A stretch of 64,000 bases of DNA, taken from the NCBI GenBank assembly GCA_002269645.1, contig NIVC01001510.1, forward strand, positions 186,001 through 250,000, read 5' to 3'. The DNA comes from Macrostomum lignano (taxonomy: Eukaryota). Every line of letters starts with the position of its first letter. Positions within the stretch are counted from its first letter, which is position 1. Below, piece after piece: positions 1-30,787 of the stretch. Position numbers and translations under genes: made by a program. The notes under the pieces were generated by a model that saw nothing but the letters and a program-made list of their open reading frames with translations, ran no database searches and was not told where the DNA came from.

Positions 1-907
1 AAGGCGCGATTTTGGAGGTGAGGTGGGTGTCAACCCTCCTCGCCTCTCATTGGCTGGCGCCCCGATCACTAGGTGATCGATACCCGTATCGATATCGGCG
101 CTCGGCGCGCGCGCGCCGCAGGCGCGTGGCGCCAAGCGCCGTCCAGCCGCAGGCGACCCTCCCCAGCCACCGGCGACCCTCCCCAGCCGCAGGCGCACCT
201 ACCGATATGTATGCCCACCCTACCGATATGTACCCCGATATGTACACCCTCCCGAGCCGCAGGCGCACCCTCCCGAGCCGTAGGCGCCCATGCCGCAGAC
301 GCCCATGCCGCAGACGCCCATGCCGCAGGCACCCCGAGTGTACACTCTACCGAGCCGCAGGCACCCCGAGTGTACACTCTACCGAGCCGCAGGCACCCCG
401 AGTGTACACTCTACCGATATGTACACTCTACCACTCTCCCGATATGTAGTCAACGATATTAGGCTAGTGAAAACTACTTATAGTAGGTGAAATTGAGTAT
501 ATTTACATAAAAATGTAGATAAAACATATTGGTAGGTGAATAATGACGCATATTGCATATTAAAATGTACATATTGGAGCATATGAGCAGCAAAAACACA
601 CAATGTAGGTGTATGGGCAGAAATAGACAAAGCAGGTACTGTAGGCGCTACATAGGTGGAAATACACACAGCAGGTTTACAAAGTGTACTTTCGATACAT
701 ATCGGATTAATGTATAAAGCAGGTTTACAAGGCATGCATAAGGCGTAGTTGTATAATGCAGGTGCGCATGTATAATCAGATTATAGGCAAACGCCCAGGT
801 GCAACAGACGCGTAAATAATGTCACACCGACTAAAGAGTAAATATTGTCTAACCCGCAGGTGCATAAAAATTTTAACCAAAAGCGGTTCGGGGAAATCCC
901 AAAAGGG
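1..907 (+). repeat. Left terminal inverted repeat (truncated by window start)
   Basis: Reverse complement of 8562-9468; mirror ORF pairs translate identically (12..449/9020..9457, 478..735/8734..8991). Identity stops at 907/8562. Confidence 0.97.
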
Positions 908-1269
908 TGGTTCACGACCTAATGACCCGATATACTTTCAACACAATTAAACCCACAAGTGGGCTAGAAAAATGGACAACGTATTTCGATTGCGCTATCA
1001 GTACGCTAATCAGCGCAGCAAGTTCATGTCAGGAGTTCTACTCCAAGAGGCGGACCGCTGGGCCACAAACCGCCCCGAGGGAATAGGTGTCAAATGGGAG
1101 TTTTAACACTTGAGGGGATCCCGCTCAATGTACAGTGGAGGCGCCAAATGAGTAAGGACCCCTAAGTACAGTGCGGGCGTAAAACCATTTTCATCCCCAC
1201 GAGTCAAGGGATCCCAAGTGGGCACATAGGGGAATCCCAGGCGTGCAAAGACAGATCCTTATCTTTCAC

Positions 1270-4200
1270 TCACTCCCGAAAGCCATACGGGCGGCTAGCA
1301 GCCCCATACACCCTCTTAGTCATTACGCGCTGGAAAGTCTTGTCCATCTCGAGGGTCCGGATTGTACAGCTAGCCTTATCGCGCCTGAACTGGGCCTGGG
1401 GCAGGCGGACAGAGCCCCCGTGGCGCAGAATTTCCTGCAGCTCGTCCTCGCGCTCGGAAATCTCGGGCGTGACTCTGATGCCCTTGCACTTGAGCACCGA
1501 GTACAGCGACCTGTCGGGCTTCTCCACCACGTACCGGTAGAGCTTGGGGCCTCCCGTGGTGAACTGTACCATGCGGCAGCCAGCAGGTACCTCGTCAGTC
1601 CACTGCCCCAAACTCGAACCGCCCGGAGGCTCGTACTCGCCCGGGGAGCAGCGGTATACGACCCTGGGAGGAGGAGGAGAAGGATAAAGTGTTAAGGGGA
1701 GAAAGAGAGACAGAGACAGTTGAAAAAATTACTTACGAATCGGTATCGGCGTAAATGACGCGGGTTCCTAGACCCTCCAGAGCCTCGTAGAGTCGCAGCC
1801 GGGCGTGGGAGGTGGTGAAAACGCCAATAGGTACATTGGCGTACTTGAACGCCCGCTCGCCAGCACCGCCAAATCGGGGCTTGTACTCGAGCATCATGAA
1901 GCTCTCCCCAATTGGCTCGCACGACTTGACCTTGATCGAGGGGTCTGTCAGGCGCTGCAGCCACGCCTCGTAGCTGTCCACAATCTCTGTGGAGGTCAGG
2001 TCGTCGCGCTGGCAGAACTTGCCCCAGAGCCTGCAGAGGAAAAATAAATTTTATGTAAGTAGAAAAACATGGCCCCCACTGCAAGTAGAAAAACTTACGA
2101 GTTTAGAAAAATCTTGGCAACAAAGCGCAGGCCAGGATTCTCCTCCACCTTTTCCAGCCGGACGCCTTCGCGCTCGAAAAAGCTGGCCATGTAGGCAGCC
2201 TTGGCGTCCTCAGCCATCCCCGGCGAACCGCTAGACTCGGCTTTGAGCTTCAAAAAGTGTTTACATAATCTGCAAACAGGCCCGTGCGAGTCTCGGTCCA
2301 ATAGGCCAGGGCATGAACTGACTGCAGCTTGTAACCCAACTGCAGGGCTTTGTGGAGCTCTGGGGTCGACCACGTGCCGCGGAGCATTCTCTCAGCGTCA
2401 GTGTGTGTACACTCGCTGCTGCACTGGGTCTCCATGCAGACGCGGCAGAGGCCGAAAACCAGCTTCTTGTTAATCTTGGCGGGCAGTAGCGGGATGTGGA
2501 GATTGGTTGGCGGCAGAATCGACACCTCGGCGATGCCAAAATACCGGGCCAGCTGCAGCTCATCCAGTAGATGAGGCTCGGGGTGGTGTACCGGGTGCCC
2601 GACAGGGTACTTGTCAAACTTGTTGACAGTCGGGTAGAGCGACACCTAGGGGATAAGGATAATAGAGAATTAGAGGATAAGATAAACTCAAACGCATGTC
2701 AACTGTGTGTACAAGTGTACAAACTTACCACATCCCGATAGCGCAGCTCTACAGTCTCGGTGGCCTCGGCATGCGGGACAAAAGCCTCGGTACGGCCGCC
2801 AAACAGGGCATCCTCCAGGCGAATAGGCTGCTGGACTGGCGCTCCCTCGTCCTGATAGTCGTGCTCCCACAGAACACGCACATTGTATGCAGTGGAGAGC
2901 AACCGGGTGAAGCGCTCAGTCTCCTCATAAATCGCCCGCATTGGCTGGTTCTTGAGCGGGTGCAGCACGTCGCCGTTGGGGAAGCACTTGGGACAGCCAT
3001 GGAAGAAGCAGCCATGAAACTGCAGCACTGTCCTGGTCTCTGGGTCGAAGCCGTCGACCTTACGGCCCATGGCGAAAGCCTCGCCGCCCGAGTCCGCTGT
3101 CCGCAACCGGCCGCCAAACTCGGTTGCATTTAAATGTGCCAGCCAGCACCGCGCCTTGTGCGACTGTACATCGGACCGGCGGGAAATCACCCCAAGAGTG
3201 TTGGGCTCCATAAACTTGGTGGTGAAAACAGCCATAGCCAAGCCCGCAATGGTGTTGGATTGACAAATGCGTCCAGTCCGCAAATGTCCTTAATCAGGCG
3301 GGTATATTTCAGACAGCCTTCCCGCAAAATTAACGTGTCCTGCAGGCAGTAGTCCAGGTACTCCTTATTGAAATTAAACACCTGTCCCTCCTGCTTGGCC
3401 CGCCAGTCGGCGATGGAGTCATGCTGCTTGTTTTTCTTTCCTCCGTACATATCAATTGAGCAGTAGGGACCGACGTACCCCCAGTTTTCCGGCTGGTTAA
3501 ACACGTGCGGGAAATCTCCTTTGGTCAGTTGGGTGCCCAAACCAAGCGCCTTTGGGAATTGCGCCAGACCAATAGGGATGAAATTGAGGCTGTCCTTGAA
3601 GGTGATCTTGTCGCACTTCATGTACATTAGGCGGCTGTTCTGGAAGATCACTTGCGGCTTCTTCTTGGCCAGTCCGTTGAGTAGGGCGCCGAGCAGGAGG
3701 AATGCGTCATACGCAGAGCCATTGTGCGCAATAGCAATTGCCCCCTGCTTGAACACACTAGTCAGCCAGCAGTAAAATGCATCGATAGAGTGCGGCCCGA
3801 CAGATACAAACTCTCGCATCCCACAGGCACAGTCATTGTGCGAGACACAGCTCGTGAAATCGAGTGCCAAATCGCGTCCCGCAATGCAATTGGCTGAGCT
3901 GTGTAGTCCCCGCACACGCTGCAGCGGGGCCTGGGGAAGAGTTTGGGACACGCCTCGCAGGAGGTGGCAGCCGTAACCAAGTGTACCCGGTGCTGCTTGC
4001 CAGAGTCCACGTACGTCTCGAAATCATAGTAAACATACGGGGCGCTAGACTCTTTGGCTTTGGGCGGGGTGACAAAGCACTCGTGGGTGGCAGTTTCGTC
4101 GTACTGCTTGCAGACTGGGCACTTGGCATAACCACACTGATGCTCAGGGGGCTGGCCTACTTTTAGTTCTTCTAGATAGCCACACGTGCCGCAAACGTGG

Positions 4201-6338
4201 ACCGAATCACAGCGCGATCTGCCGGCCTTATTCTTGCGCTTGTGATTTTCTAGGCACTGAGCATTATAGCAATTTAGCCCGCAATCATGGCATCTTACAT
4301 ATGCGCGGTTTGCCTTACAGTTGGAGCCCGGAGTCTTGCATGTGCTGCAGGCATCAGCGCACTTGTGCTTCTCATTATTGCAGTCGTGGGCCATCTCGCA
4401 CTTGTCGCAGTAGTGGTGGCTGCCGAAAAACGCAGGCAGCTTGGTGACCACATTAAAGTGCTGCTCGACCAGGTGCAGGTGCAGAATCTCGGTGCCAGGC
4501 AGGTTGAAGATGCACCTGTTGGCCTCCTCTGCCCGGTACACGCGTACACCAAAATCGCGCCCCGGATGCAGCCGGTTCAGGGCACGGATCGCTTCAGGCA
4601 GTGCATCCACGCCGAAAGGACCAGCCTGCGAGACGGTTTGAAGAGTCTGTGGAGGGTAAAATATTTCTTTTAGTATTCCCTGATACTGTGTAAAAAATCT
4701 TATCAGAAAATTTTAGTATTCCCCGATACTGTGTAAAAATCTTATCAGAAAATATATCTTTTAGTATTCCACGATACTGTGTAAAAATTCTTATCAGAAA
4801 ATTTTAGTATTCCATGATACTGTGTAAAAATTCTTATCAGTACACAACTTACCGTGTAGAGGCCAGCTTCGATTTGTAGCTCAGCCACCAGCTTAGTCTG
4901 CGTGGGCGAATTGACCTTGATTGTGTGCCACACCCGCTTGGTGATGGACTTGGCCACGAATTGCAGGTAGGCGCAGGCCACGACCAGAGCGCGCAGCAGG
5001 CATCTCTTGTCCGAGTTGGTGATGCGGACATAGTGCCTGGAGAAGGCATGCCGCTCTTCTAGATGCTTGTTCTCGAGAGCACATCCACCTCGAGGCACCC
5101 AGGCCTTTAGCAACCGGATAGAAAAGTTGCCCGTCAGGACAGTGGCATCCGACTGTACAATCTTGTTGATGTGCTTAAACAACAATTCAGCCGTCATGCG
5201 GGATGCACGCACCGGGGGAGTGTGGGCCGCTTTGAGCATATTGTCGCTCTCGAATTTCGCGGCCATAAAGTCATCACCAGCCAAATCTTGCTTGAAAACT
5301 TCGAGCATGTCAGCAAACACCTCCCGCAAATCTTCGGTGTTGGTAATATGCACCACATACTCGACACCCTTTGCCCTAAACTTGGGCAGGTCACGCTGAT
5401 TATCCAGCCGGGCCGTAAAACCTGCATGGGGGGAATGGGGGAGTGTGAGTCAGCCCGGGTCTGTGTGGGAAATGGGGGGCGGATAACTCACCCGGTCCGG
5501 TAACAGATTCCGGCTGTGTTGGCGGGACAAACGCGTCTGAAAAAACACAAGGAGATAAAAAACCAGAAGAATCTGTCATTTTCCTGGCCCCAGCGTGTTT
5601 CCCCGCCCTAGCCCCAGCAATTTCTTAACAGAGTTTACTCTGCTGTCCCCGCAGCAACTCTCTGCAATTTCTTATCTGCACCCCCGCTGCAGCCTGTCGC
5701 AGCAGTCTTTGTTTACTCACCCCTGCAACTCTCTGTCGCAGCAATTTGCACCCCAGCTGCAGCCTGTCTGGGTAGCGCCCTATCTGCAGCCCCAGTCTGT
5801 CCCAGCAACTCTCTGCCCCCACCTGGCTGTAACTTGTCTAGCCTGCCCCAACGATTCTGCAGCAATTTCTTATCTGCCGCAGCACCCTAGCAACTGTCTG
5901 TTTTTGCAGCAATTTCTTATCAGCACACCCCTCCCTGTCTAGACAACACCCCACCCCAGTCTTTGTTTACTCACCCCTGCAACTCTCTGTCGCAGCAATT
6001 TGCACCCCAGCTGCAGCCTGTCTGGACAACACCCCCTAGCAGCAATTTCTTATCAGCACACACCGGCTGAAACTTGTCTAGCCCTCCCCTGCAACTCTCT
6101 GTTACAGACCCTGCCGCAGCACCCCACCCTAGCAACTCCAGTCTAGACCCCTGCAGCTGTCGCAGCAGTCTTTGTTGTTTACTCTGCGGTCCCACAGACC
6201 CTGCAGCTGCTGCTGCTGCTCAGCCCCTACCCCCACCCTAGCAACTACAGTCTAGACAGAAATTAATTAAAACTTACCATAAAGACGTTGCCTCTTGTCA
6301 GCCAGGAAAGCAGTTGCTGCGGCGCTGCGTTTAGCCAT
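1270..6338 (-). CDS. polB: Protein-primed DNA polymerase B (Polinton type), 7 exons, ~1276 aa after restoring three 1-bp homopolymer deletions
   Basis: Exons 6338-6278, 5536-5492, 5421-4853, 4646-2729, 2645-2099, 2030-1737, 1663-1270; all introns are GT-AG with matching phases. Motifs: DKRCLLRAL...HFNVV (OTU-like), Cys-rich region, Exo YDFET / HNGSAYD / YCLQD, VDGF..QFHGCFFHGC insert, RDV|VSLYP (A), KIFLNS|LWGKF (B), YADTDS|V (C), terminal KRVY..SRPYGF. Frameshifts at ~3910, ~3266, ~2254. Confidence 0.93.
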
Positions 6339-6579
6339 TTTGCAAACAGAGAGCGTGAGAGAGCGAGCGGAGAGAGAAGGATTATCTCTCTACCCTGGCT
6401 CTGGGGGTCTGTATATATACTAAAAAATCTGCTCAGCTCGCCTGTTATTGGATAAATCGCCAAAAACCAACCAAAATCATCAAAAATCACCCCAAAATCA
6501 TCACCCACCCCACCCTCCATCCGGGGTATATAAGGCGCTGCACGGCTGTCAGAGAGCTCTCTGCTGCTGCTGCTAAATC
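6339..6579. promoter_or_regulatory. Divergent Pol II promoter region for polB (-) and the PC4-like gene (+)
   Basis: TATATATA at 6412-6419 upstream of the polB ATG (6338); TATATAA at 6527-6533 upstream of ATG 6580. Confidence 0.6.
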
Positions 6580-7113
6580 ATGTCTTCTATCTCTCTATAC
6601 GAAAACTTTGTGGCGCGGAAGCCCACATTTGAAACTGAACACAACTTGATTGAAATTCGGCGTCTCTACACCAACGAGGCCGGAGTGTGGAAGGACGGCT
6701 TCCCTGCAATCTACTTGGCCGAGCCAGAGTGGAAGAAGCTCGAAGCTGCGCGCCCTGACCTGGAGGCTGCTGCCCGCCTTCACGTGAACAAGCGGGTCCT
6801 GTTGGGCAATTTCAAGGCAGTTGAAGCTTCGCGAGGGAGGATCCGTTTGCTGCGCAATTGGCTCAATCAGGACCCAAAGTTTAATTGGCGCTACACGATC
6901 GAATTCACGCCTGAACTGTGGCGCCGGATGTTTGCCGCCCGTTTGGACAAGCTCTTCAAGCCGGCACCTGAGGCACCCCCTCCAGCCAAGCGAGTCAAGA
7001 CAGACACGCCTCCGGTAGCCGGGACTGAGGTGGATGTTCTTCAGCTCATGGGTCTCAAACCCTACCAATCTCCACCCTGGGAAAATCTGTTTAACGAGGG
7101 TTGGGACTGCTAG
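6580..7113 (+). CDS. Tandem PC4-like ssDNA-binding protein, 177 aa
   Basis: LIEIRRLYTNEAGVWKDGFPAIYLAEPEWKKL aligns without gaps to PC4 [32 protein letters not shown]. A second degenerate repeat follows (IRLLRNW...IEFTPELW), then NLS-like PPPAKRVK; TATA box upstream. Confidence 0.75.
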   Translation: MSSISLYENFVARKPTFETEHNLIEIRRLYTNEAGVWKDGFPAIYLAEPEWKKLEAARPDLEAAARLHVNKRVLLGNFKAVEASRGRIRLLRNWLNQDPKFNWRYTIEFTPELWRRMFAARLDKLFKPAPEAPPPAKRVKTDTPPVAGTEVDVLQLMGLKPYQSPPWENLFNEGWDC

Positions 7114-7149
7114 TTTCCTATTGGTTCGCACCGCCTCACTCGATCCGTC

Positions 7150-7156
7150 TATATAA
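7150..7156 (+). promoter_or_regulatory. TATA box of the orphan gene
   Basis: TATATAA lying 73 nt upstream of ATG 7229. Confidence 0.5.
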
Positions 7157-7228
7157 TTAGTGTTTCCCCCTCTCCAGAGAGTCAAACCCTATCTCAGCTC
7201 TAATACTTTACTCTCTGTTGATTCTAGC

Positions 7229-8243
7229 ATGTCCCGCCGAGCTCTATCCAACCTCTGGGATAATAATCGCCCGACTGAAGAGTTAACCAGCCTCGACGGG
7301 GATATCCCTGAACACATAGTTCCCCTAGGCACTGAAAACAACGGAACTGATAATTGGGAGGCTGATCAATATCTAGCTTGGGCTATGTCCTATGATAGCG
7401 ACACCGAGTCTGAAGTTTTTGACCTCCCGCTGCTGGCTATCGGCGGGGTTGTGAACGGTGCCCCTGCTGCTACTGCCTCCGATTTGACTACCGCCTCAGC
7501 CGCCCTCTTTGACGTCTCTGTTGAGGAGCTGACCACAACCGGCCCTGCCTCTGCTGCGCCCGTCTCTGCTGCTGCCGCCTCTACTACGCCCGTCTCTGCT
7601 GCTGCTTCAACTACCTCCCACCGGGCCTCAATATCATCAGCCGCTACGCTCCTTCTCTTCGACGACGAGGACGAGGATATGTCTGAGGAGATCGCCGTGG
7701 TTCGTGAGCGCTTTCCTCGCATTGTGGCCTCATTTTTCCGCGGGGACATTGACTGGCTGAGGTCTCGGCATCCTGGCGGGCTGCCCTCCCAAGCTACCTT
7801 TGTCAGAGCCTTTAATCGGGTTCTTGATACTTTGGTTGCGAGGGGTGCCGGCCTACGGGAGGTGCTGGAGGCTGAGACTCTGCACCAGGACTGGTTGATG
7901 GGGCGCAATTCGTATGCCCCCGACTCGGAGGCGTACCTGGCCGGTCCGGGAGCACGGCCAACTGCGTGGGATGAGCCCGCCGCATGGCCCTCCAACTGGG
8001 AGGAGCACCTTTCGTTGGTGCGCTATACAGCGTCTCTACGTCTGTGGCGGCTGGAGGACGATTTAGATTTGGTAAGATATTACATTATATACACAACTCA
8101 TCTAATCATATACCTTGCATATATTCTATCTACATTGACTGTTATAATTTCCACATTGCCAGTCATCCGACTACTGCTTCGAGAGCGTGGAGGAAGAGGC
8201 CGCGTACGAGACAGCCCTGAGGGAGCGTATGGAGATTGACTGA
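7229..8243 (+). CDS. Acidic orphan protein, 2 exons (7229-8071, 8163-8243), ~307 aa
   Basis: Long ORF from MSRRALSNLW. A phase-0 intron 8072-8162 (TTG|GTAAGA...TTGCCAG|TCA) removes an AT-rich stretch and gives the C-terminus SSDYCFESVEEEAAYETALRERMEID. No family recognised. Confidence 0.7.
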
Positions 8244-8561
8244 TAAGGGTATTTCTCTTTGTACGCGGTTTGGGGAACCCAACACTGTACACTGGGTAGG
8301 TTAGAATGGGCGCTAGCTGGGGGCCTCTATGTGTGTATACACGGGGGTTAAAAGACCAATTCTGATAGCTCGCTCCTAGGGAGGAAATTGGCAGAGGGGC
8401 CGGCCCAAAAAACTGAAATGGGCTGGCCCCGGGCTCGAGTCCACCCACCTAAAATATGGAGGGTCATTACAACCTAATGACTCGAAATACTTTCAACGCA
8501 ATTGTACCTATAAGAGGGTTAGGGCGGCGGCGGCGGTGGCGAAAACGGGCGGCTAAAACCT

Positions 8562-9486
8562 CCCTTTTGGGATTTCCCCGAACCGCTTTTGGTTAAAATT
8601 TTTATGCACCTGCGGGTTAGACAATATTTACTCTTTAGTCGGTGTGACATTATTTACGCGTCTGTTGCACCTGGGCGTTTGCCTATAATCTGATTATACA
8701 TGCGCACCTGCATTATACAACTACGCCTTATGCATGCCTTGTAAACCTGCTTTATACATTAATCCGATATGTATCGAAAGTACACTTTGTAAACCTGCTG
8801 TGTGTATTTCCACCTATGTAGCGCCTACAGTACCTGCTTTGTCTATTTCTGCCCATACACCTACATTGTGTGTTTTTGCTGCTCATATGCTCCAATATGT
8901 ACATTTTAATATGCAATATGCGTCATTATTCACCTACCAATATGTTTTATCTACATTTTTATGTAAATATACTCAATTTCACCTACTATAAGTAGTTTTC
9001 ACTAGCCTAATATCGTTGACTACATATCGGGAGAGTGGTAGAGTGTACATATCGGTAGAGTGTACACTCGGGGTGCCTGCGGCTCGGTAGAGTGTACACT
9101 CGGGGTGCCTGCGGCTCGGTAGAGTGTACACTCGGGGTGCCTGCGGCATGGGCGTCTGCGGCATGGGCGTCTGCGGCATGGGCGCCTACGGCTCGGGAGG
9201 GTGCGCCTGCGGCTCGGGAGGGTGTACATATCGGGGTACATATCGGTAGGGTGGGCATACATATCGGTAGGTGCGCCTGCGGCTGGGGAGGGTCGCCGGT
9301 GGCTGGGGAGGGTCGCCTGCGGCTGGACGGCGCTTGGCGCCACGCGCCTGCGGCGCGCGCGCGCCGAGCGCCGATATCGATACGGGTATCGATCACCTAG
9401 TGATCGGGGCGCCAGCCAATGAGAGGCGAGGAGGGTTGACACCCACCTCACCTCCAAAATCGCGCCTTACGGAATCCCTTAGTAGT
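8562..9486 (-). repeat. Right terminal inverted repeat
   Basis: 8562-9468 mirrors 907-1. The 9469-9486 extension (ACGGAATCCCTTAGTAGT) has no partner inside the window and is inferred. Confidence 0.93.
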
Positions 9487-9725
9487 GACAAACACATTAG
9501 ACAGATCTAAAAACACATTCAACACATTGACAAACACACTCAACACATTCAACACATTGAGAAACACATTTAATACATCGACAAACACATTAAACACATT
9601 GACAAACACATTCGATACATTGACAAACACATTCATCACACTAGCAAACACATTCGACAGATCGACAAACACATTCGACAGATCGACAAACACATTCGAC
9701 AGATCGACAAACACATTCCACAGAT
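9487..9725. repeat. Degenerate 21-bp minisatellite (GACAAACACATTCGACAGATC)
   Basis: Tandem copies visible; they explain the heptad-repeat ORFs in the track. Confidence 0.85.
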
Positions 9726-13973: not shown

Positions 13974-14479
13974 CTCTGTCCCCAATTTCTGCCTTCTCTC
14001 CCCAAATCTCTCTCGTCACTCCCTTTAATTTATCAATTTCGACCTAATCACATGATTTCTCAATGATGACCTTTCCATGATTTCGCTAGGATCTTTATTA
14101 GACCTCTCTATGATCTCTATTTGCCTCTGGCAGCCGCAGACTCCCCCACGCTGTCTCGCAAGTCGACCCAGGGGTACTCGTCCCCGCGTGTGTTCAAGGC
14201 AGACCCTAGGGCTGCTGGACAGACTGGGCTCCGGCGCTGGCGACCCTATCCAGTGGCTTCGGCCGAATTTGGGTATGCGGGTCTGGCTCACCAGCCTGCA
14301 GGCCGTGGTACTGCTTAACGTACCCTCTAATGCCTAAGGTGTTTGACCGTGCCGATGGGCTGGAAGGCCGGGGAGTAGTCCGGTCGCTAGCGGTCCTTTT
14401 TTCAAACCGGCTGGCTTGAGGTGTCGGCCAGTCGGGTACTCAACTCGCATAACGAGTAGCCCTCCCCCGCTTTTCAGCT

Positions 14480-15995
14480 ATGGCCACTAACGCCACCATC
14501 TCTAAAGAAACTGACCCGGTCGCCTCTGGCTCACCGGGATCAGCCGCTCCGGTAGCTACCACTGGTAGCACCAACGCCCAACCTGGTCCAACCGGGCCAG
14601 CTGACGCTGCCGCCGATCACCCTGGCCGCCAGTCTAGCCGACCGCGCACGGCCGAGTCTCGACGACAGCGGAACATCCGCCGCAACCGTAAGCGGCAGGA
14701 GAAGCGGGCTGCTGCTGCGTCTGAGGAGGGCGGGCAAGCCGCGGTGAGGCCTTCGGGAGCCACCGCAGCGGGGAGGCCCTCTGGGGAGTCCGGTGGCGCG
14801 GCTGGGCCGTCAGGAACCGCCGTGTCCTCGGGCTCTCAGGGGGGCAACCCTGCCGGCCTACCGCCTTCCAAAGACAAAGCGGCCCCGCTCAAGACCTCCG
14901 AGTCCTACGCGTCCAAGGTCAAGCAGCCGCTGCAACCCGCCGTGATGATCCTCGGCGGGGATTTCGACCTGACGCCCGAGCAGCTCGACGTCGCGTGGCG
15001 TACCATCGACGAGGGCTTGCTCAATCTAACCCTGGAGGGCGTCTTCGTGGACATCGTCAAGTCCACCAAGGCGAACGGGTGCATCCTACTGTGGTGCAAA
15101 TCCGAGGAGAGCACCCAGCTCCTGCGGGATCAGCTGCCCAAGTTCGACTGGCACAGCGACCTGGGCCAGCTGACCTTCGCCTTGGAGAGCGAGCGGCCGA
15201 AGACCATCCGCCATCGGATTTGGGTCCCGGCCGACAGTGCAATCAAGTCCGGGGAGCAGCTGCGGCAGCTCCTGCTCAAGCGGCACCCGGATCTCGACGC
15301 CAGTGGTCTTGTGTACCACAGCACGGTCCGCAAGGGCACGACCGGGGCCACAGTCATCCTCGGCCTGACGGAGGGATGGGCCAAGCGGCTACCGCACGGC
15401 ACAAACCTCCACCTTGGTCTCCATCAACTGACCATCCTCCGCTGTGAGGAGGGCAAGGTGGAGACCAAGAAAGACGGGAAGCGCGCCGCTCCCGGAGCTG
15501 GGGCTCATGCCCCGCCGGCCAAGCGGCAGCAGCAACCCGATCCCGAGCCTAACTGCTGAGTCCGCCTCGCGCGGACGTAGACCCGCCCGCAGTAGCCGGC
15601 GGTCCGGTCTAATCCAGCGCGCACTTGACGAAGCTCAGTCTCTGAGACTTCACCTCGAGCAGACTCGTGCCGCTCGCAAAAACACTGAAAGCCAGCCGAG
15701 GGAACTGGACGACGGCACGGCTCAGCCTTCCAACTGGTGGGATTACCACCAGGAGGACGCTGCCGGCCGAGCTCAGACTCCCGACGGCGGGGCGCAAGGC
15801 GAAGGCAGCAGCCGTACCCCAGTCGCTGGGGAGGAGGGCGGTGTAGCGCGGCTAGGTGACTCACCTGCCGTGGGCGCCGTGTCCGCCTCCGCGGCGGCTG
15901 GGGAGGCGGCTGAGCCTGAGCCAATGGAAATTGGCGACTCAACTCTCACCGATGAGGCTGAGAATGAGTTGCTTTTCTCCTCCCCTGGACAGTAG
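14480..15995 (+). CDS. LINE ORF1 (DUF4780-like), 14480-15559, probably continuing by frameshift to 15995
   Basis: RIWVP..E.LRQLLLKRHPDL..VILGL..L.LGL pattern resembles LOA-type ORF1. An overlapping frame (15444-15995) ends with TAG two bases before the ORF2 ATG. Confidence 0.65.
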
Positions 15996-15997
15996 AC

Positions 15998-18900
15998 ATG
16001 ACTGTCTCCCAGGGCATCCACTGCTTGCAGGTCAACCTGCAGCACAGCATTGCTGCTTCAGTCAACCTCTTGAAGCACACTGACCAATACGTGCCAGGGA
16101 TTATCCTTATCCAGGAACCTTGGACGCTTAGGGGCAGCCCCCAACATGTCCCCACCGGCTACCAGTGTTTAACCGCTGGTACCCGGGAGGGAAACCTGGC
16201 ACCAAGATCCTGCATCATGGTGTCCAGTTCTATTACGCATGGCTCAGATCAGACCTGTCCACCAGGGACATCTGTGTCATCCAGTCTGAAGACATACTCC
16301 CTGGGAGGACTACCCTCATCGCCTCGGTTTACCTACCGGGCGACGGCGAGATGATCCCAGTAGAGCTTGTCACACTGGTCGAGCTCTGCTCCACCAGAAA
16401 CTATGAGCTGCTCGTGGCAGGTGACATCAATGCCCACCACACCCACTGGGGCAGTTCTGATATAAACCAGAGAGGTGAAGACTTCCTGGCTTATATTGCT
16501 ACTACAACCCTTGAGTTCTGTAACTCGGGTAGTACCCCTACCTTCAATAACGGACGCCGATCGGAGGTGCTGGATGCCACCCTCGCCACGCCCAGGCTCT
16601 TCCGGAGCACTAGGGAGTGGCGGGTGCTTCCTGAGGCGTCCCTCTCCGATCACAAGTTCATCTCTTTCACGCTGGCCAGCGCCCGTAACGCAGGCCAGCT
16701 TTACTGGAAACGGAATGCTAGGAATACCGACTGGACCGCCTTCAGGCTTGCCCTGGAGGAGACCTATCGTTGCACTAGCACTCCAGTCTCCATCAACACC
16801 TGCGAAGAAGCAGATGAATTTGCGGCCGCACTTACGGACTCGCTCACTGCTGCCTTCGAAGCCTCATGCCCACTAAAGGCATATAAAGGCAAACAGTCGG
16901 CCCCATGGTGGAACCCGCAGCTTGGCGACCTCCGTCGCAGAACCAAAAGGCTTCACCGCAGGGCCCAAAAAACTAAAAACCCGGCCGACCAAACCGCCTA
17001 CCTGAACTCTATCCACGAGTTCAAGAGGCAGGTTAGGAACGCCAAAACCAACAAGTGGCGCGAATACTGTGAGGAACTTGAGGGCTCCCGCCCCACCTCC
17101 AGAATCGTTAAAGCCCTCACCCTGGACAAAATGTCCAAACTCTCCTCAGTCAAGAGAGCCGACGGCTCGCTCACTGAGAACCCAGGAGAAACACTGGAAG
17201 CGATGCTAACAGCGTTTTTCCCGAACGAGCCAGCCAGGCCCGACCCCCCTGACCACTCAGTGGGCGGACACGTACTGGCTGACTCAATCATCACGGAGGA
17301 CCGCGTTACTAAAGCTGTCTCCTCCTTCAAACCCTTCAAATCCCCAGGACCGGACGGCGTTGTGCCAGCCTTCCTGCGGGAGGCGGTGAAATGCACCGGT
17401 TTCCTGCGGAACCTTTGCCGGCTTCTGAAAGCTTGCATTGTGCTCGGCTTTGTTCCGAAATCCTGGACCGAGGCCAAGGTGGTCTTTATCCCCAAGCCTG
17501 GCCGACCGGACTACCGGTCCATTAAATCCTTCAGACCAATTAGCCTCACCTCCTCATTGGTGAAGCTGTTAGAGAGACTGGTGCTCTAACGCCTCCTCTC
17601 TGTGGAACTGAAGAACAAGCCGCTCAGTGAGAACCAGCATGCCTTTCGGGCAGGCAGGTCCACGGAGAGCGCGCTTCACGTTCTGGTTGACATGCTGGAG
17701 AAAGCCGTTCTTGGTAATGGCTACGCTCTCGCTGTCTTCCTCGACATTGTTGGAGCCTTTGATAATGTCCTCTTTGAGGCTTTTGACAGAGCTCTACGTG
17801 CTAGAGGAACCCACTCGCACCTCACCCGGTGGATCATGTATATGATCAGCCACCGTACTGCCACCGCACACCTGTTGGGCCACCAACGGACGGTAACCGT
17901 CTGCAAAGGCAGCCCCCAGGGCGGTGTCCTCTCTCCAGTTCTCTGGAACATGGTCATCGATGAGCTCCTCCAGGACAGCCATCTTGACCCCATCCTCAAG
18001 GTCGGTTACGCCGATGATGTCACTGCCGTGGCATCCGGACCGTCACCTGAAACCCTTAGAGATCTTTTGCAAAACTTCATTCGCTCTGCTGAACGTTGGG
18101 CGGACAGGTGCGGCCTCAGGCTCTCCGAGACCAAAACTGTCGCGATCATGTTCACCAGCAGGGTAAACTGGCGTATTCGCCCACTAAAGCTTTACGGGGT
18201 GGAAATTCCATCCTGCAAGCAAACCAAGTGTCTCGGCGTTACGCTGGACCACCGGCTGAGCTGGTCCACCCACGTCCAGGCCAAAACCAAAAAAGCCCTC
18301 GCGATTCTTGCGCAGCTGCGCAGAGCCGTCGGCACCACCTGGGGCCTCACCCCAAAGCGTCTCTGGTGGATCTATACCGCAATGGTCCGACCGGCCGTTA
18401 CTTACGCCGGCCTGGTCTGGACCAGCGCCTTGCAGATTAAAACCTGCCACGAAGCCCTCAAAAAGGTGCAGGGACGTGCGTGCCGCATGATCCTGAATGC
18501 CCCGCTCTCTGCTCCCTTTGACGGCCTCAACGCCTTTCTCTGCCTCCCGCCTCTGGACATCTTTGTCCGTCGCGAGGCTGCTAAAACCACCCGCCGGCTC
18601 ATCGAGGCTGGTGTTAGCTTCAAGCCACAAAGAGCGATGGCGAAGCGCAAGCTCCTGCCGCACTCTGACCTGTGCCTTAAAGTTCTGGAGGAGAGTGGGA
18701 GTGCGGCTGTCCTTTCGGACGCTGAACCGCGCTCCCTCAATCTCTACCAACGCTTCAAGGTCACGATCCCCTCCAGGGAGAACGCCAACGACAGCTGGGC
18801 CCCTCAGGAGGTTCACTGCTTCACTGACGGATCCTCCAAAGACGGTTTATCCGGCTTTGGAGTCTGTATCCTTATCAACGGCCGCGTGATTGCTACTCAC

Positions 18901-19701
18901 GCCCAACACACTGGCAGACTCTCCAGCGTCTTCCAGAATGAAGTCCTTGCCATCAGCTCCTGTGCAGCTGAGCTCCACTGCAAGGACTTCAAGGACAGAA
19001 GAATCTTCTTCCACTCTGACAGCCAGGCCGCTTTACAGGCCCTGTGTCACACCACTACGAACTCCCGAACAGTCCGCGACTGTATCGGGCAGCTCAACAA
19101 GCTGGCTCGGAGGAACACCGTCCGGCTCACGTGGATCCCAGGACACGCCGGCTTCAAAGGTAACGAGCTCGCCGACTCCCTCGCTAAGGCGGGCTGTTCC
19201 GGCTCGCCCCTTGGCCCCGTGCCCCTGGCCCCCATCCCCGCCACAGTCATTAATCGTCAGATTAACGACTGGGCGGACATCCTGCACTTGCGCAGTTGGG
19301 ATGGTATCTCCAACTGCCGCCAATCTCGTGCGGCAGTGCCCAATCCGTCCCTCAAGCTGCGGAGAATCCTTTTGAATCAAAATCGAAAAGATATCCGCGC
19401 TCTCACTATGACCTTCACAGGTCACGGTTGCTTTGCCAGGCACTGCTTCCTCCGATGTGTTCGCCGGAGTGAACTCTGCCCCTTCTGCAGCCTCGAGAAT
19501 GAAGATGCCAAGCACTTCGTCTGCTACTGCCCGGCCTTCAACCGAGACCGGCTCAACCACCTCGGGCCCAACCCGTCCCTGGACGACGTTTGCCGGCCCG
19601 AGAACATCCCACGGCTCATCCGGTTCCTCCGGGCCACCAAGCGAGCCTCCGTCTTCCCCACCGAAGACAACGCTGCAGACAGGACCGGCAGACCTCCCTG
19701 A
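15998..19701 (+). pseudogene. LINE ORF2: AP endonuclease, reverse transcriptase, RNase H, C-terminal CCHC; disrupted
   Basis: APE: QVNLQHS, IQEPW, GDINAHH, SDH. RT: QHAFRAGRST, FLDIVGAFD, PQGGVLSP, YADD, LGVTLD. RNase H: FTDGS, SDSQAAL, WIPGHAG..GNELAD. CPFC-x8-H-x4-C. One -1 frameshift near 16233 and an in-frame TAA at 17587-17589. Confidence 0.93.
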
Positions 19702-24532: not shown

Positions 24533-26624
24533 CCGCTTTTAGTGCTTACTGAGCAAACATTAAAGTGATGAAGCCTCGTATGGATGGAAGATGAGACTGG
24601 GCTGGCGCCAAGACTCTGATCTACAGTCCATCGAAAAGGACTCTGGAGGGGGGTTGACGTTTATCAGGAATTTAAATGAGCATTTAGAAGAAAGGGTGGG
24701 GCACTGAGGACTGTCACAGGAAGGACAGGGCACTGAGGACTGTCACAGGAAGCACAGGGAACTGAGGACTGTCACAGGAAGCACAGGGCACTGAGGACTG
24801 TCACAGGAAGCACAGGGCACTGAGGACTGTCACAGGAAGGACAGGGCACTGAGGACTGTCACAGGAAGCACAGGGCACTGGGGACTGTCACAGGAAGCAC
24901 AGGGCACTGAGGACTGTCACAGGAAGCACAGGGCACTGAGGACTGTCACAGGAAGCACAGGGCACTGAGGACTGTCACAGGAAGCACAGGGAACTGAGGA
25001 CTGTCACAGGAAGCACAGGGCACTGAGGACTGTCACAGGAAGCACAGGGCACTGAGGACTGTCACAGGAAGGACAGGGCACTGAAGACTGTCACAGGAAG
25101 GACAGGGCACTGAGGACTGTCACAGGAAGGACAGGGCACTGAGGGCTGTCACAGGAAGGACAGGGCACTGAGGACTGTCACAGGAAGGACAGGGCACTGA
25201 AGACTGTCACAGAAAGGACAGGGCACTGAGGACTGTCACAGGAAGGACAGGGCACTGAGGACTGTCACAGGAAGGACAGGGCACTGAGGACTGTCACAGG
25301 AAGGACAGGGCACTGAAGACTGTCACAGGAAGGACAGGGCACTGAGGACTGTCACAGGAAGGACAGGGCACTGAGGACTGTCACAGGAAGGACAGGGCAC
25401 TGAGGACTGTCACAGGAAGGACAGGGAGACGGCAGAACCATCAGCTCACCTGGCAGACTTGCCGGAGCCCACGCTGATCTGACAGCCGCCAGCTGAACTG
25501 GCCGTCAGACGGATATCCGAAAATGCAGCCTGCAGAAAAACCGAACTCAGGTTTAATGAGTGCCAGTAGCCATCAACAATCAAGGCCATAGACTAGAGTA
25601 TAGAAAGTCACCTGTTCCACTCGAACATCCCAGTCGGACTGGATTTTGCGACTGCGAAAGTACTTGGACCTGCGGAGAGAAGTCGTATCGATTGCATAGC
25701 GATAAGGTTGGGCGGGGCTGAGAGTGCTGGCATGGCTAATCAGGTTTGATTCCATTAGTCTCATAGACTCGACTCACGATCGACTCAATTATCATGGGCT
25801 TGGGATGAACGCGCTGGGAGAAATTTAGCTTTCCAATCGGCTCAAGTATCCGGAAATATTGATCTAGAAAATACCGCCTAAAGTACATCGTTTGCGAATT
25901 GACGGAAATATTTTTATGATGGAATTTCTCAAGAAAAAACACTCCAAATGAAGCAGTTCAATTCATACGACTTCCGGCTGGATTTCCTGTTTTTATGCTC
26001 TCGAGACAAGATTAAATTGTACGTCACGTCATCAGCCCTTATGTACATAAGCTTCACCAGAGTCAATGGGTCCCGTGGGAGGCTAAGTTAAGCAAAGTTC
26101 GCCGCGGTTAGTGCCCACAAATAAACGGATCGATGACTAGAAAGTCAGGGCCCTGTGTGAGCGCGTGCCTGCGTGTCGGCCTAAATTATAAGGTGTGCAA
26201 GGACCAAAAGCCCAGATCTAGTCTCAGTAGTCCTTGCGCCGGCTCACCAATCCGTGTGCGGCTCGTCAACAACCAGCAGAACCTTGCAGCGGTCCCGGCT
26301 GGCCGACCGGCCGTGGAACAGCAGGCTGCGGCCGATGATGCTGCTGCCGATCTGCCCAGCGAAGCTGCTGGCCGAAGTTGGCGCCGGCTGCGCAGTTTTC
26401 GATGGCGACGTTGGCGCGCTTGGGTAGACCGACTTTCTTGGCTGCACCGGCGTGGCTGCCTGCGATTCCCGAGCTTCCGCTTTCTTTTGCTCCTGTTGCT
26501 CTTTTTGCTCTTTTTGCTGCTCTTGCTGCTGCTGCTGGAGCTCCTGTTCCTGCTGTGCCCGACTGTCAGCTCCTTCGCCTTGCAGATCGCCCGACGAGAA
26601 TCGGCGCTTCAGGTAGTTGAGCAT
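21590..26624 (-). CDS. Syn: Synapsin, exons 1-5 (26624-26248, 25669-25612, 25529-25450, 22951-22801, 21679-21590); later exons not found in window
   Basis: MLNYLKRRFSSGD (domain A, PKA site), KVLLVVDEPHTDW|SKYFR, DVRVEQ|AAFSDI, LFKPDCALIRQ...GVPCVN..LYNFADRAWL, FANL..L...G.EAFPLIDQT. All junctions are GT-AG and in phase. Confidence 0.93.
21945..22660. repeat. 13-bp satellite (AGGACAGGCAGAG) in synapsin intron 4
   Basis: Tandem array; explains the 310-aa repeat ORF. Confidence 0.95.
22999..23375. repeat. 16-bp minisatellite (GTTAGACATGAAACCG)
   Basis: Tandem degenerate units. Confidence 0.9.
23837..24135 (+). mobile_element. tRNA-derived CORE-type SINE
   Basis: A box TAGCCTAGTGG (23844), B box GGTTCGATTCC (23887), then GTGTCCTTGAGCAAGACACTTAAC...CAGCTGTAAAATGGG resembling the CORE domain; AT-rich 3' end, which is approximate. 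Confidence 0.75.
24479..24532. repeat. (GA)n microsatellite
   Basis: Directly visible. Confidence 0.95.
24698..25426 (+). repeat. 29-bp satellite (CACTGAGGACTGTCACAGGAAGCACAGGG), left arm
   Basis: About 25 units; the unit is the reverse complement of the 27359-28223 array. Confidence 0.95.
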
Positions 26625-27358
26625 GGCCGCAACAGGTGGCGCTGCAGTCTAACAGCCGTAGGAGATGTTTTACAATTTCCCAATGGATGAATAAAAACTC
26701 CAGGGGCGGCTGGGGATCTCCGAGGTTAATTCGATTCGAGACTCGCTGGGCCCTCGGGCAGATAAATTTCAAGAGCGAAGGAGACTCGAAAATAAATTGG
26801 AGGGCTGAAATTGCCGATCCGCTAAACGAGCCGACTCGCTTTCTCCCGGCTCTACTGCTTCTATTTCAGTTCGTCTCCACGGCCACTTCAGCCGGAGACC
26901 CAATCCACACCGAGTGGCTTTTCCCAGACCCTGTGCGCCTTCCTCAGCTGATCACGGGCGAGGCAGGAAAAGGGAAGAGGGAAGCGCCGAGGTGGATTGG
27001 GGAGTACGGTTGGGGATGGGGAAGAGAAGCTGCAAGGGGGAATGACGGCATGGTAGACGCTCTCCGCCAGCTCCAGCAGAGCCTTTGCACCGGGGCGGCT
27101 TCCACTGGAGACGAGATAAAAAATTAACGCCCGATGCCACTTTACCCCACCCTCTGCCAGCACCCCGGCCTCTGAAATATTAAAGCTCAGAAGCTCAGAC
27201 TGTTATACTGAGGACAAACCTGGACGGCCATGCTGAGTGGCTCCACTCTTTAGTGACCGAGCTGGCTTCGAAATTTAATTCTGTACCAGACTTGAATTGG
27301 GATTCGTGGGATTATTTATAATCACGAACAAATAAAGCAGAAGGAAGGCCGATTATTT

Positions 27359-28223
27359 CTGACAGTCCTCAGTGCCCTGTGCTTCCTGTGACAGTCCTCA
27401 GTGCCCTGTGCTTCCTGTGACAGTCCTCAGTTCCCTGAGCTTCCTGTGACAGTCCTCAGTGCCCTGTGCTTCCTGTGACAGTCCTCAGTGCCCTGTGCTT
27501 CCTGTGACAGTCCTCAGTGCCCTGTGCTTCCTGTGACAGTCCTCAGTGCCCTGTGCTTCCTGTGACAGTCCTCAGTGCCCTGTGCTTCCTGTGACAGTCC
27601 TCAGTTCCCTGAGCTTCCTGTGACAGTCTTCAATTCCCTGTGCTTCCTGTGACAGTCTTCAATTCCCTGTGCTTCCTGTGACAGTCTTCAATTCCCTGTG
27701 CTTCCTGTGACAGTCTTCAATTCCCTGTGCTTCCTGTGACAGTCCTCAGTTCCCTAAGCTTCCTGTGACAGTCCTCAGTGCCCTGTCCTTCCTGTGACAG
27801 TCTTCAGTGCCCTGTCCTTCCTGAGACAGTCTTCAGTGCCCTGTGCTTCCTGTGACAGTCCTCAGTTCCCTGAGCTTCCTGTGACAGTCCTCAGTGCCCT
27901 GTGCTTCCTGTGACAGTCCTCAGTTCCCTGAGCTTCCTGTGACAGTCTTCAATTCCCTGTGCTTCCTGTGACAGTCTTCAATTCCCTGTGCTTCCTGTGA
28001 CAGTCCTCAGTTCCCTGTGCCTCCTGTGACAGTCCTCAGTTCCCTGAGCTTCCTGTGACAGTCCTCAGTTCCCTGAGCTTCCTGTGACAGTCCTCAGTTC
28101 CCTGTGCTTCCTGTGACAGTCTTCAGTGCCCTGTCCTTCCTGAGACAGTCTTCAGTGCCCTGTCCTTCCTGAGACAGTCTTCAGTGCCCTGTCCTTCCTG
28201 TGACAGTCTTCAGTGCCCTGTCC
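27359..28223 (-). repeat. 29-bp satellite, inverted right arm
   Basis: About 30 units of CCCTGTGCTTCCTGTGACAGTCCTCAGTG. Confidence 0.95.
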
Positions 28224-30787
28224 TCTTAAGAAACCTGCTGCAAAAATACCCATGCTTGCTTAATTTGGAATTCCGAAGTCCAGGTGAAATATTGTGCAGT
28301 TCAGTGCTAAAAAACTGAAGACTTGTTATCTAGACTTAGCCATGCAGTAAATTTATTCGGGTGTTGCGTCCTACTCTTGCTGCTACTCGGGAAGATTTGC
28401 TATCGAATCGCGTGACCAACTGCTTTTGGCTTTCCGCCAGAGTCTAATTAACCTGAGCACAGAGCGCACCCTTAGGCGCCGAGGCCCCTAGCTTAGGGAA
28501 CAGGACAGATGGGATATAAAAAATTTGAGCATCGAGAAAGCGGAGGAACTGAGCCAGCTGGAAGGAGAGGCGGAGAGCGGGGCTTTGAACAGAAGTGGAA
28601 ACGGTTGGGGAGAATTGAAAAATCAATACGGATCGGTATGGACAGGACAGGAGCAGCAAGCGCCATCAGCTGTGGCATACTTTTATTTTCCATTTGGCCT
28701 CCTTTTGGCGGGAGAGGCAGGCAGCATCAGAGGGAGGCTGACGGGGGGGGGGCGGCGAACTCAGCATTAATCCCCTTCCTTCAGGCTCCCGCGCCATTTC
28801 ATGCAAATCTGCTGCTCGATTCGCCAGCCTGTTATATTTTATATTTTGCCCACCCGAATTTCTCTGCCTGCGTACACTCAGTCTTCCCGGTGGGATAAGA
28901 GAGAGAGAATGGAGAAATCCGAATATATCCATCACAGTCCTGCTCAACTGTGCCTACTGGCAGCCAGCCTAAATCCCCAGGAGGTCAGCTGCTACCATTC
29001 CTCCATCCCCACGATAATAATGGGGGGGGGGAAGCTGCGTGCAGATCTCGCGCGGCAACATCGGTCAAACTCAGTGTTCACTGCTTCACACGGGATTCGC
29101 CTTCATTCTCCTTTCTGGACCGCCGTCTCCATCATGCCTCAAGTTCCTTCCGCGTACCTCCATCCGCTGCTTATGAGCTTTGGATTCAAATTCAATGCCT
29201 CATCATGGTACATATCAATATCCTGCGCCCCGCAAGCTTAGGAGAGTGGATGGACAGGTCACCTCCTGATATATGCAATATAGTTTGTGTTACAGTTAAT
29301 GTTCCGGCTTCCATCCATCGATTATAAATGGCCATACGAACGAAGCTGTGTCTGCACTGCATCTCATCTCATAGTTTTGGCTCTCCATTTTTCATCCCCA
29401 CCTGGGGGAACTCCCGGGCCTTTCGGGCAGGGCCCATTCATAACTCTACTCGATTATCATATCTTACCTTTATTCTCAATCTTTCTTCTTATAACTGCAC
29501 TAGTTACTTCGTTCCCTGTCGATATAAAATGCAAGCGTCATAGCCCCCTCAGTGTCTACTCTCTCCCGTCATAGCCCCCTCAGTGTCTACTCTCTCCCGT
29601 CATAGCCCTCTCAGTGTCTACTCTCTCCCGTCATAGCCCCCTCAGTGTCTACTCTCTCCCGTCATAGCCCCCTCAGTGTCTACTCTCTCCCGTCATAGCC
29701 CCCTCAGTGTCTACTCTCTCCCGTCATAGCCCCCTCAGTGTCTACTCTCTCCCGTCATAGCCCCCTCAGTGTCTACTCTCTCCCGTCATAGCCCCCTCAG
29801 TGTCTACTCTCTCCCGTCATAGCCCCCTCAGTGTCTACCCTCTCCCGTCATAGCCCTCTCAGTGTCTACTCTCTCCCGTCATAGCCCCCTCAGTGTCTAC
29901 TCTCTCCCGTCATAGCCCCCTCAGTGTCTACTCTCTCCCGTCATAGCCCCCCTCAGTGTCTACTCTCTCCCGTCATAGCCCTCTCAGTGTCTACTCTCTC
30001 CCGTCATAGCCCTCTCAGTGTCTACTCTCTCCCGTCATAGCCCTCTCAGTGTCTACTCTCTCCCGTCATAGCCCTCAGTGTCTACTCTCTCGTGTCATAG
30101 CCCTCTCAGTGTCTACTCTCTCCCGTCATAGCCCTCTCAGTGTCTACTCTCTCCCGTCATAGCCCCCTCAGTGTCTACTCTCTCCCGTCATAGCCCTCTC
30201 AGTGTCTACTCTCTCCCGTCATAGCCCCCTCAGTGTCTACTCTCTCCCGTCATAGCCCCCTCAGTGTCTACTCTCTCCCGTCATAGCCCCCTCAGTGTCT
30301 ACTCTCTCCCGTCATAGCCCCCTCAGTGTCTACTCTCTCTCGTCATAGCCCCCTCAGTGTCTACTCTCTCTCGTCATAGCCCCCTCAGTGTCTACTCTCT
30401 CTCGTCATAGCCCCCTCAATGTCTACTCTCTCCCATCATAGCCCCCTCAGTGTCTACTCTGTCCCGTCATAGCCCCCTCAGTGTCTACTCTCTCCTGTCA
30501 TAGCCCCCCCAGTGTCTACTCTCTCTCGTCATAGCCCTCTCAGTGTCTACTCTCTCCCGTCATAGCCCCCTCAGTGTCTACTCTCTCCCGTCATAGCCCC
30601 CTCAATGTCTACTCTCTCCCATCATAGCCCCCTCAGTGTCTACTCTGTCCCGTCATAGCCCCCTCAGTGTCTACTCTCTCCCGTCATAGCCCCCTCAGTG
30701 TCTACCCTCTCCCGTCATAGCCCTCTCAGTGTCTACTCTCTCCCGTCATAGCCCTCTCAGTGTCTACTCTCTCCTGTCATAGCCCTC

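Follow-up and report, generated by a model that had tools for sequence, protein, structure and literature searches.

Polintons (Mavericks) are represented in published surveys by elements 13-25 kb in length that combine a protein-primed family B DNA polymerase (pPolB) with an integrase, a major capsid protein (MCP), a minor one (mCP), a protease and a packaging ATPase. Their terminal inverted repeats (TIRs) range from 100 to 1500 bp and their target-site duplications (TSDs) from 5 to 8 bp in the available part of 10.1101/2023.08.22.554363, and intact vertebrate Mavericks are reported, in the portion available of PMC8097293, to be intronless and to begin with 5'-(AG)3 or 5'-(AGT)2. Here we describe a 64,000-nucleotide stretch of the flatworm Macrostomum lignano (GCA_002269645.1, contig NIVC01001510.1, positions 186,001 to 250,000 of the forward strand; hereafter the window), at the left end of which lies an element, A1, whose pPolB gene is interrupted by six introns and which has neither integrase nor capsid genes. 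Comparison of its sequence with related loci makes it likely that A1 is the replication half of a bipartite Polinton, the capsid and integrase half, element B, being a separate element. This pair of host element and partner is a larger finding than the introns in the catalytic motifs of the polymerase, which had been the subject of an initial annotation of the window.

The yeast killer/helper plasmids pGKL1 and pGKL2 are cytoplasmic, are not known to form particles or to integrate, and each encode a pPolB of their own. They are two cooperating linear double-stranded DNA (dsDNA) elements of 9 and 13 kb (PMC13348850). The Bidnaviridae, represented by Bombyx mori bidensovirus, have two linear segments with conserved termini, a Polinton-derived pPolB on one of them, and separate capsids, as described in the available text of PMC4061559; by analogy they are the nearest precedent for a two-part layout, although they have single-stranded DNA (ssDNA), a parvovirus-like single-jelly-roll capsid and no integrase, whereas here the capsid is of the double-jelly-roll type and both halves integrate. 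The accessible part of a 2017 review gives no multipartite dsDNA family, with Polydnaviridae as the sole segmented dsDNA entry (PMC5680193).

Element A1 is 9,504 bp long, with 930-bp TIRs, ends reading 5'-ACTACTA...TAGTAGT-3' and a 6-bp TSD (Table 1). It encodes only the pPolB, a divergent PC4-like protein (orfA) and one orphan (orfB): the orfA product is 28% and 31% identical (E 4e-9 and 5e-11) to the PC4 proteins of two canonical Polintons of the same genome, and no family was found for orfB at the cut-off. Integrase, MCP, mCP, protease and ATPase genes were found neither in the window element nor in 29 A-type loci. Pfam PF03175 scored above cut-off on two pieces of the polymerase, and the Exo I-III and A, B and C motifs of a protein-primed family B polymerase are present; the element shares with Polintons a pPolB with a terminal-protein/vOTU-like N-terminus, long TIRs and the 6-bp TSD. 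Its closest named group is the Polintoviricetes, possibly the type with a pPolB2 bearing a Vsr-like insert. The nuclease-like insert had no sequence match in PDB, its viral-contig matches were confined to large viral contigs, and a quick tree (no bootstrap, no named pPolB2 reference) placed the polymerase apart from five intronless polymerases of the same genome that carry endonuclease VII (EndoVII). The element sits in a 21-bp tandem repeat (window 9486-9722, with the left flank in L011), and several other copies also lie in tandem repeats. Assignment to the CACTA transposons was rejected: the right end does look like CACTA, yet its C is part of the TSD, and other copies end in ACTACTA next to a 6-bp TSD.

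When the genome was searched with exon 6 of the polymerase, all 115 candidates were scored and 105 matched. With four second fragments and four short decayed matches dropped, the loci were binned into 53 of family A1 (93-100% identity) and 44 of families A2 and A3 (63-76%). UniRef contains near-identical proteins under the label Macrostomum lignano. Where both flanks were readable, 6-bp TSDs were present at all copies (9/9 for A1, 4/4 for A2/A3). The polymerase of family A3 (L065, L066, L070) lacks the vOTU-like and Cys-rich part, and its motif-B donor is altered in two copies.

Element B and a third class, C, were reached by a pattern search for the ends of element A. B1, 10.5 kb in length, has the ends of A1, 6-bp TSDs and TIRs of some 650 bp, and its genes, all continuous open reading frames (ORFs), encode a Fic protein, an rve integrase (Pfam rve E 2e-9), a putative mCP so labelled by position and size only, an MCP, a cysteine protease, a packaging ATPase and core-like proteins, together with several small ORFs. 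An alignment-based fold of the MCP (predicted local distance difference test, pLDDT, 79.7) matches the double-jelly-roll capsids of PBCV-1, Sputnik and mavirus at E about 1e-16; the protease was assigned by motif (Pfam C48 E 0.06), and the ATPase, integrase and MCP are 28-35% identical to their canonical Polinton counterparts. Polymerase, PC4 and orfB were found in none of 16 B-type loci. A second family, B2, has an MCP 88% and an integrase 81% identical to those of B1, with synonymous differences per site (pS) of 0.75 for the MCP; it has no polymerase, and its ends read 5'-ACTACG, as in A2. Of 451 candidates in the capsid search 98 were scored, and of 1570 in the integrase search 114, both searches reaching the 30-36% identity tier; at least 101 capsid matches, counted once per locus after second fragments and the 30-33% canonical tier were dropped, correspond to at least 27 B1 and at least 35 B2 loci. 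TSDs of 6 bp flank all B1 (6/6), B2 (3/3) and C (6/6) copies with both flanks readable.

The Fic-domain gene of B1 (L116:929-1708) has an intact-looking motif and was not found in B2. Capsid proteins 80-81% identical to that of B1 occur in ENA and Logan contigs (P0069-P0071), which may point to a third lineage or to a related host. Scans of viral contigs returned no capsid relative and polymerase matches limited to the nuclease domain; a metagenome scan returned one distant, decayed capsid.

Several lines of evidence join A to B. Their gene sets are complementary and non-redundant: the core genes of a Polinton are divided over two elements, each shorter than the 13-25 kb of the family (9.5 kb for A, 10.5 kb for B), which together supply pPolB, integrase, MCP, mCP, protease and ATPase in about 20 kb. 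Of the 11 terminal 20-mers in the TAGTAGT class, A1 and B1 have 6 in common, and 7 are present on two or more classes; 31-nt terminal haplotypes are also common to A and B, the stretch just inside the end is variable, and within a single copy both ends are mostly alike. The split is paralleled by a second pair, A2 (62% amino acid identity to A1) and B2, both ending in 5'-ACTACG. What was found is a set of complementary segments with shared replication ends, as in multipartite genomes. When the 97 polymerase loci were set against at least 62 B-type capsid loci, a shared contig was seen in only two cases among the matches listed, at distances of 47 and 166 kb. When ends were paired, 34 of 43 pairs spanned 8.0-10.6 kb and none bracketed both modules; of the three longer pairs, one encloses a canonical Polinton nested inside it, one a duplication, and one a centre with no polymerase or capsid match.

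The same data bear on the possibility that the split is decay, with A, B and C derived from a full-length monopartite Polinton that survives as a helper in unassembled sequence, as extrachromosomal DNA or in other strains. Non-autonomous derivatives are common among DNA transposons, the genome contains a polymerase-less canonical Polinton and the deleted polymerase family A3, the palindromes of class C resemble copy-back defective genomes, and the assembly is fragmented (5,269 contigs). Yet none of the 115 exon-6 candidates, all of them scored, lies near a B capsid gene, none of the 43 end pairs encloses both modules, the polymerase is under purifying selection, and the same division into non-redundant gene sets is seen in two lineages far apart at synonymous sites. 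We therefore consider derivation by deletion improbable.

The canonical Polintons of this genome are 16-17 kb long and have intronless polymerases, and the five canonical-type elements with ends read begin with 5'-AGTAGT, in the opposite orientation to A, B and C; the 5'-ACTACT and 5'-ACTACG ends of the latter also differ from the (AG)3 and (AGT)2 of vertebrate Mavericks. A and B might be independent parasites of these canonical elements, with ends that are merely convergent: canonical Polintons with an integrase are numerous (115 integrase matches), and their PC4 is similar to orfA. Such parasitism appears highly improbable given the difference between 5'-ACTAC and the 5'-AGTAG of the would-be helpers, the lack of any blastp match at E 1e-5 between the A polymerase and the intronless polymerases of the genome (7/7), the mere 35-36% identity of the B integrase to canonical integrases, and the exact terminal haplotypes common to A and B. 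No DNA common to canonical elements and A, B or C was found in the two canonical elements compared. C494 (L102:963 to L103:2871) is an 11.9-kb Polinton with canonical ends, integrase and capsid genes and polymerase fragments only, with about 13 similar integrase loci. In a canonical-type element on C2285 (L087-L088), a polymerase frame of 1,478 aa is accompanied by genes for a deoxynucleoside kinase and a dUTPase.

The members of class C are palindromes 8-9 kb long that have no genes and share the ends of A and B, with arms that are mosaics of A and B terminal sequence; its internal marker gave 105 matches. Neither an Rfam match nor a protein match at E 0.05 was found for the palindromes or for the non-polymerase part of A2. 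One palindrome of about 8.9 kb with the element's ends (C106, L109:5964 to L111:7023) holds a nested 12-kb canonical Polinton with its own TSD, and C2693 has the same TSD and a different centre. Three 4.1-kb elements (C1242, C1300 and C1923) have a common end haplotype and no palindrome marker and are possibly a further segment class.

A number of observations weigh against a bipartite system. The pairing of A with B is a proposal from sequence comparison. A2 and B2 share none of 14 exact terminal 20-mers, their longest common end being 18 nt; A3 has an end of its own and no B partner was found for it; and the pairs differ in accessory content, A2 lacking PC4 and orfB and B2 the Fic gene. Polymerase loss by itself is not special, as the polymerase-less Polinton with canonical ends (C494) indicates. 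Several loci duplicate one insertion (e.g., C1573 and C1640), so that the counts overstate independent events, and those for capsids and integrases come from searches covering 98/451 and 114/1570 candidates. Five end-paired elements have no palindrome marker; their lengths are 4.1 kb (three elements), 8.5 kb and 1.4 kb. At C428, C4851, C38 and C382 a polymerase or capsid gene is located 3-5 kb away from that marker, and these loci may be A-C or B-C recombinants.

If A, B and C form one system, its mode of propagation may be outlined from established Polinton and adenovirus biology. Host RNA polymerase II and the spliceosome would produce the pPolB mRNA, and the polymerase, with its terminal protein, would prime at the shared ends and copy A, B and C alike; the layout of terminal protein, vOTU, exonuclease and palm behind such priming is described in the available part of 10.1101/2024.03.18.585575, and the ACT-ACT terminal repeat would suit slide-back priming. 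Strand displacement would homogenise the two TIRs, and the B integrase would insert A, B and C. Under this proposal the terminal haplotypes would be shared because the pieces co-replicate, with exchange of ends. Packaging of each piece singly in the B capsid is the weakest step; the tight 8-10.6 kb size class suggests it, and we regard separately packaged virions as a tentative proposal, somewhat short of an even chance. Similarly tentative is the fullest version, a true multipartite flatworm dsDNA virus in which segments A and B would each be packaged singly in a double-jelly-roll capsid able to take about 10 kb, would reassort and would exchange ends as they co-replicate, with gene-less palindromic satellites, and in which the motif introns would have arisen via extinct homing or protection.

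The pPolB gene is on the minus strand, and the six introns proposed for it in the initial annotation were confirmed at the same coordinates, with GT(A/G)AGT donors, YAG acceptors and matching phases (1, 1, 0, 0, 2 and 2 for introns 1-6). They split the catalytic motifs as had been described, at RDV/VSLYP (motif A), KIFLNS/LWGK (motif B) and YADTDS/V (motif C), those in motifs B and C interrupting a Ser codon. Four public runs were compared over window positions 900-8600. In three RNA-like runs from three studies, represented by assembled Logan contigs, exactly 73, 68, 83, 206, 70 and 741 nt (introns 6 to 1) are removed, and every intron is joined in two or three of the three; the RNA nature of these runs is a tool's guess, none of the listed runs being recorded as RNA, and levels and retention are not measurable from contigs. 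Unspliced contigs over intron 1 are also present in the RNA-like runs, and run X19, of a kind not recorded, joins none of the six introns. GT-AG is intact at all six introns in 10 of 11 full sister copies, one acceptor being unaligned in the eleventh; a branch-point-like YTRAY occurs in three of the six introns and a G on the 3' exon side at four. Having GT-AG borders, GTRAGT donors and a pyrimidine tract, and being removed from RNA-like contigs, the introns are of the spliceosomal (U2) type, and the view that a viral-type polymerase, here a Polinton pPolB, depends on host splicing was borne out. The introns also mislead annotation, as had been anticipated: in two UniRef models of the family the exon beginning in motif A is largely missing.

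In the window copy the reading frame is broken by single-base shifts at three places, near 2250 (exon 5), 3260 and 3900 (exon 4). These are probably assembly errors, because all four runs and nearly all covering sister copies (11/11, 10/11 and 10/12) differ from the window there. Each sister copy has indels of its own, and none of the 11 has an in-frame stop; the ratio of nonsynonymous to synonymous differences per site (pN/pS) of these copies against the window is 0.11. The data fit a selected gene in an indel-prone assembly, and a pseudogene was ruled out by the pN/pS and the lack of stops.

The positions of introns 4, 5 and 6 at motifs A, B and C fall in the top 1-11% of conservation among 28 non-host homologs. 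The probability of at least three of six introns at sites so conserved was 0.0006, 0.005 and 0.02 for smoothing half-widths of 4, 6 and 2, and about 1e-4 to 1e-3 when the three catalytic motifs alone were counted. The enrichment at motifs suspected earlier does exceed a random null, but the test is post hoc and rests on a single evolutionary origin. Family A2 (62% amino acid identity) has all six introns at the same positions and in the same phases, with unrelated intron sequences, and a decayed AT-rich polymerase relative (C234) has no interruption in any of the three motifs and no trace of inserts. Because A2 shares all six positions and this relative is uninterrupted, the comparison indicates that a common ancestor of the A families acquired or fixed the introns on a single occasion, and that they are old and position-conserved.

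Insertion into catalytic motifs brings to mind homing introns. A present-day homing origin was not supported, the motif introns being just 68-83 nt long and the longest ORF in the 741-nt intron 14 aa; there is no mutual similarity among the six introns, and Rfam gave no group I or II match and nothing to E 0.1 over window 1-9600, so that neither an intron-encoded endonuclease nor a ribozyme fold was found. The motif introns could instead be relics of intron-borne or free-standing nucleases that targeted the most conserved polymerase sites, in the manner of inteins and of mirusvirus homing introns, or a shield against the nuclease of a competitor. One intron in each of the three motifs, at such conserved sites, speaks for this idea, as does the nuclease-like insert of the polymerase in a genome whose canonical polymerases carry EndoVII. 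Spliceosomal introns, some of them carrying endonucleases, occur in core genes of mirusviruses, which are nuclear DNA viruses (available part of PMC12768974), and dinoflagellate Polinton-like elements carry young introner insertions (10.1101/2025.03.18.643946, in the part available). The introns here differ from both: they lack an endonuclease, they do not repeat one another's sequence, and their positions are old and conserved from family to family. Moreover, they have no ORF, structure family or mutual similarity that would betray a homing past, three of them lie outside the motifs and none in Exo I-III, and the intronless relative lacks any trace of inserts. On balance, a homing relic or nuclease shield seems rather unlikely.

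By this analysis, a role in expression or in countering silencing, with placement by chance or by a generic bias of gain or retention, ranks above the homing relic or shield and is moderately favored, a version with regulated splicing as a gate being included. The single origin and the post hoc test with P up to 0.02 are consistent with this account, as are the G on the 3' exon side at four of six introns, the presence of an intron in orfB as well, and the unspliced contigs across intron 1; the values of 0.0006 at half-width 4 and about 1e-4 to 1e-3 for the catalytic motifs alone stand against it. Introns counter the silencing of long intronless transgenes in human cells (available part of PMC8770142), and the anti-silencing idea is an analogy to this human HUSH system. 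The regulatory gate that the initial annotation had derived from motif placement was not supported. Retention of any one of the six introns leads to a stop 1-105 nt past the donor, so introns outside the motifs truncate the protein equally and motif position adds nothing to gating; retention, moreover, cannot be measured from contigs. The introns would then be ordinary spliceosomal introns, kept as the long early transcript needs them for expression or for avoidance of silencing.

The features of the window element are collected in Table 1. The domain labels of exon 4 are partly our assumption, and the nuclease insert is taken to be Vsr-like from its motif and from the literature available in part.

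Table 1. Features of element A1, in window coordinates (a slash marks an intron position)
Feature	Position	Strand	Evidence or remark
Left TIR	1..912	+	100% complementary to 8557-9468; terminus 5'-ACTACTA 18 bases left of window, in L011
pPolB exon 7: past motif C, GPKLY motif, stop	1270..1663	-	
Intron 6, 73 nt, phase 2, within the motif C Ser codon (YADTDS)	1664..1736	-	Joined in 3/3 RNA-like runs
pPolB exon 6: motif B (second half) through motif C	1737..2030	-	
Intron 5, 68 nt, phase 2, within the motif B Ser codon (KIFLNSLWGK)	2031..2098	-	Joined in 3/3
pPolB exon 5: SLYP to first half of motif B	2099..2645	-	Pfam DNA_pol_B_2 E 3e-10
Intron 4, 83 nt, phase 0, in motif A (DV/VSLYP)	2646..2728	-	Joined in 2/3
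pPolB exon 4: presumed end of vOTU-like domain, Cys-rich region, Exo I-III, inserted Vsr-like nuclease	2729..4646	-	Pfam DNA_pol_B_2 E 1e-11; motif positions
Intron 3, 206 nt, phase 0, contains 43-bp tandem repeat	4647..4852	-	Joined in 2/3
pPolB exon 3: putative terminal-protein part and vOTU Cys motif	4853..5421	-	Assignment after 10.1101/2024.03.18.585575 (available part)
Intron 2, 70 nt, phase 1	5422..5491	-	Joined in 3/3
pPolB exon 2, 45 nt	5492..5536	-	14-aa exon
Intron 1, 741 nt, phase 1	5537..6277	-	Joined in 2/3
pPolB exon 1	6278..6338	-	ATG at 6338
orfA, 177 aa, PC4-like putative ssDNA-binding protein, divergent from pPolB	6580..7113	+	Atlas 0.86
orfB, about 307 aa, orphan	7229..8243	+	Exons 7229-8071 and 8163-8243
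orfB intron, 91 nt	8072-8162	+	Joined in 3/3
Right TIR, 930 bp, ending TAGTAGT-3'	8557..9486	+	
TSD GACAAA, 6 bp	9487..9492	+	Also left of element

Elsewhere in the window, positions 14453-19701 (+) hold a non-long-terminal-repeat retrotransposon with an ORF1-like frame followed by endonuclease, reverse transcriptase and RNase H, and a stop near 17587. Two inverted arrays of a 29-bp tandem repeat at 24689-28224 surround about 2 kb, and the three enclosed ORFs tested have no Pfam match. For ORFs of the window outside the features described, Pfam matches numbered 0 of 21, these three ORFs counted in the same scan.

In our literature search neither a study of Macrostomum Polintons nor one of a bipartite Polinton came to light; it excluded Repbase, supplements and subscription journals, so that a prior listing is possible. 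The available portions of 10.1101/2024.03.25.586562 and 10.64898/2026.10.13.758929 describe no bipartite Polinton, and the term "bipartite" in PMC12220804 refers to a network and not to a Polinton layout.

The introns at the catalytic motifs pose a separate, smaller puzzle on intron gain in viral enzymes. If the bipartite arrangement is true, segmented or multipartite organisation would be extended to double-jelly-roll dsDNA elements, and the pair would model, in nature, a step that has been inferred in how bidnaviruses arose. Surveys in which polymerase and integrase must fall in one search window, as in the available part of 10.1101/2023.08.22.554363, or that require uninterrupted ORFs, would miss such an element. 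The arrangement predicts three DNA classes of 8-10.6 kb with common ends, and as M. lignano is culturable and the polymerase is transcribed and spliced, the formation of virions by animal Polintons could be tested in this flatworm.

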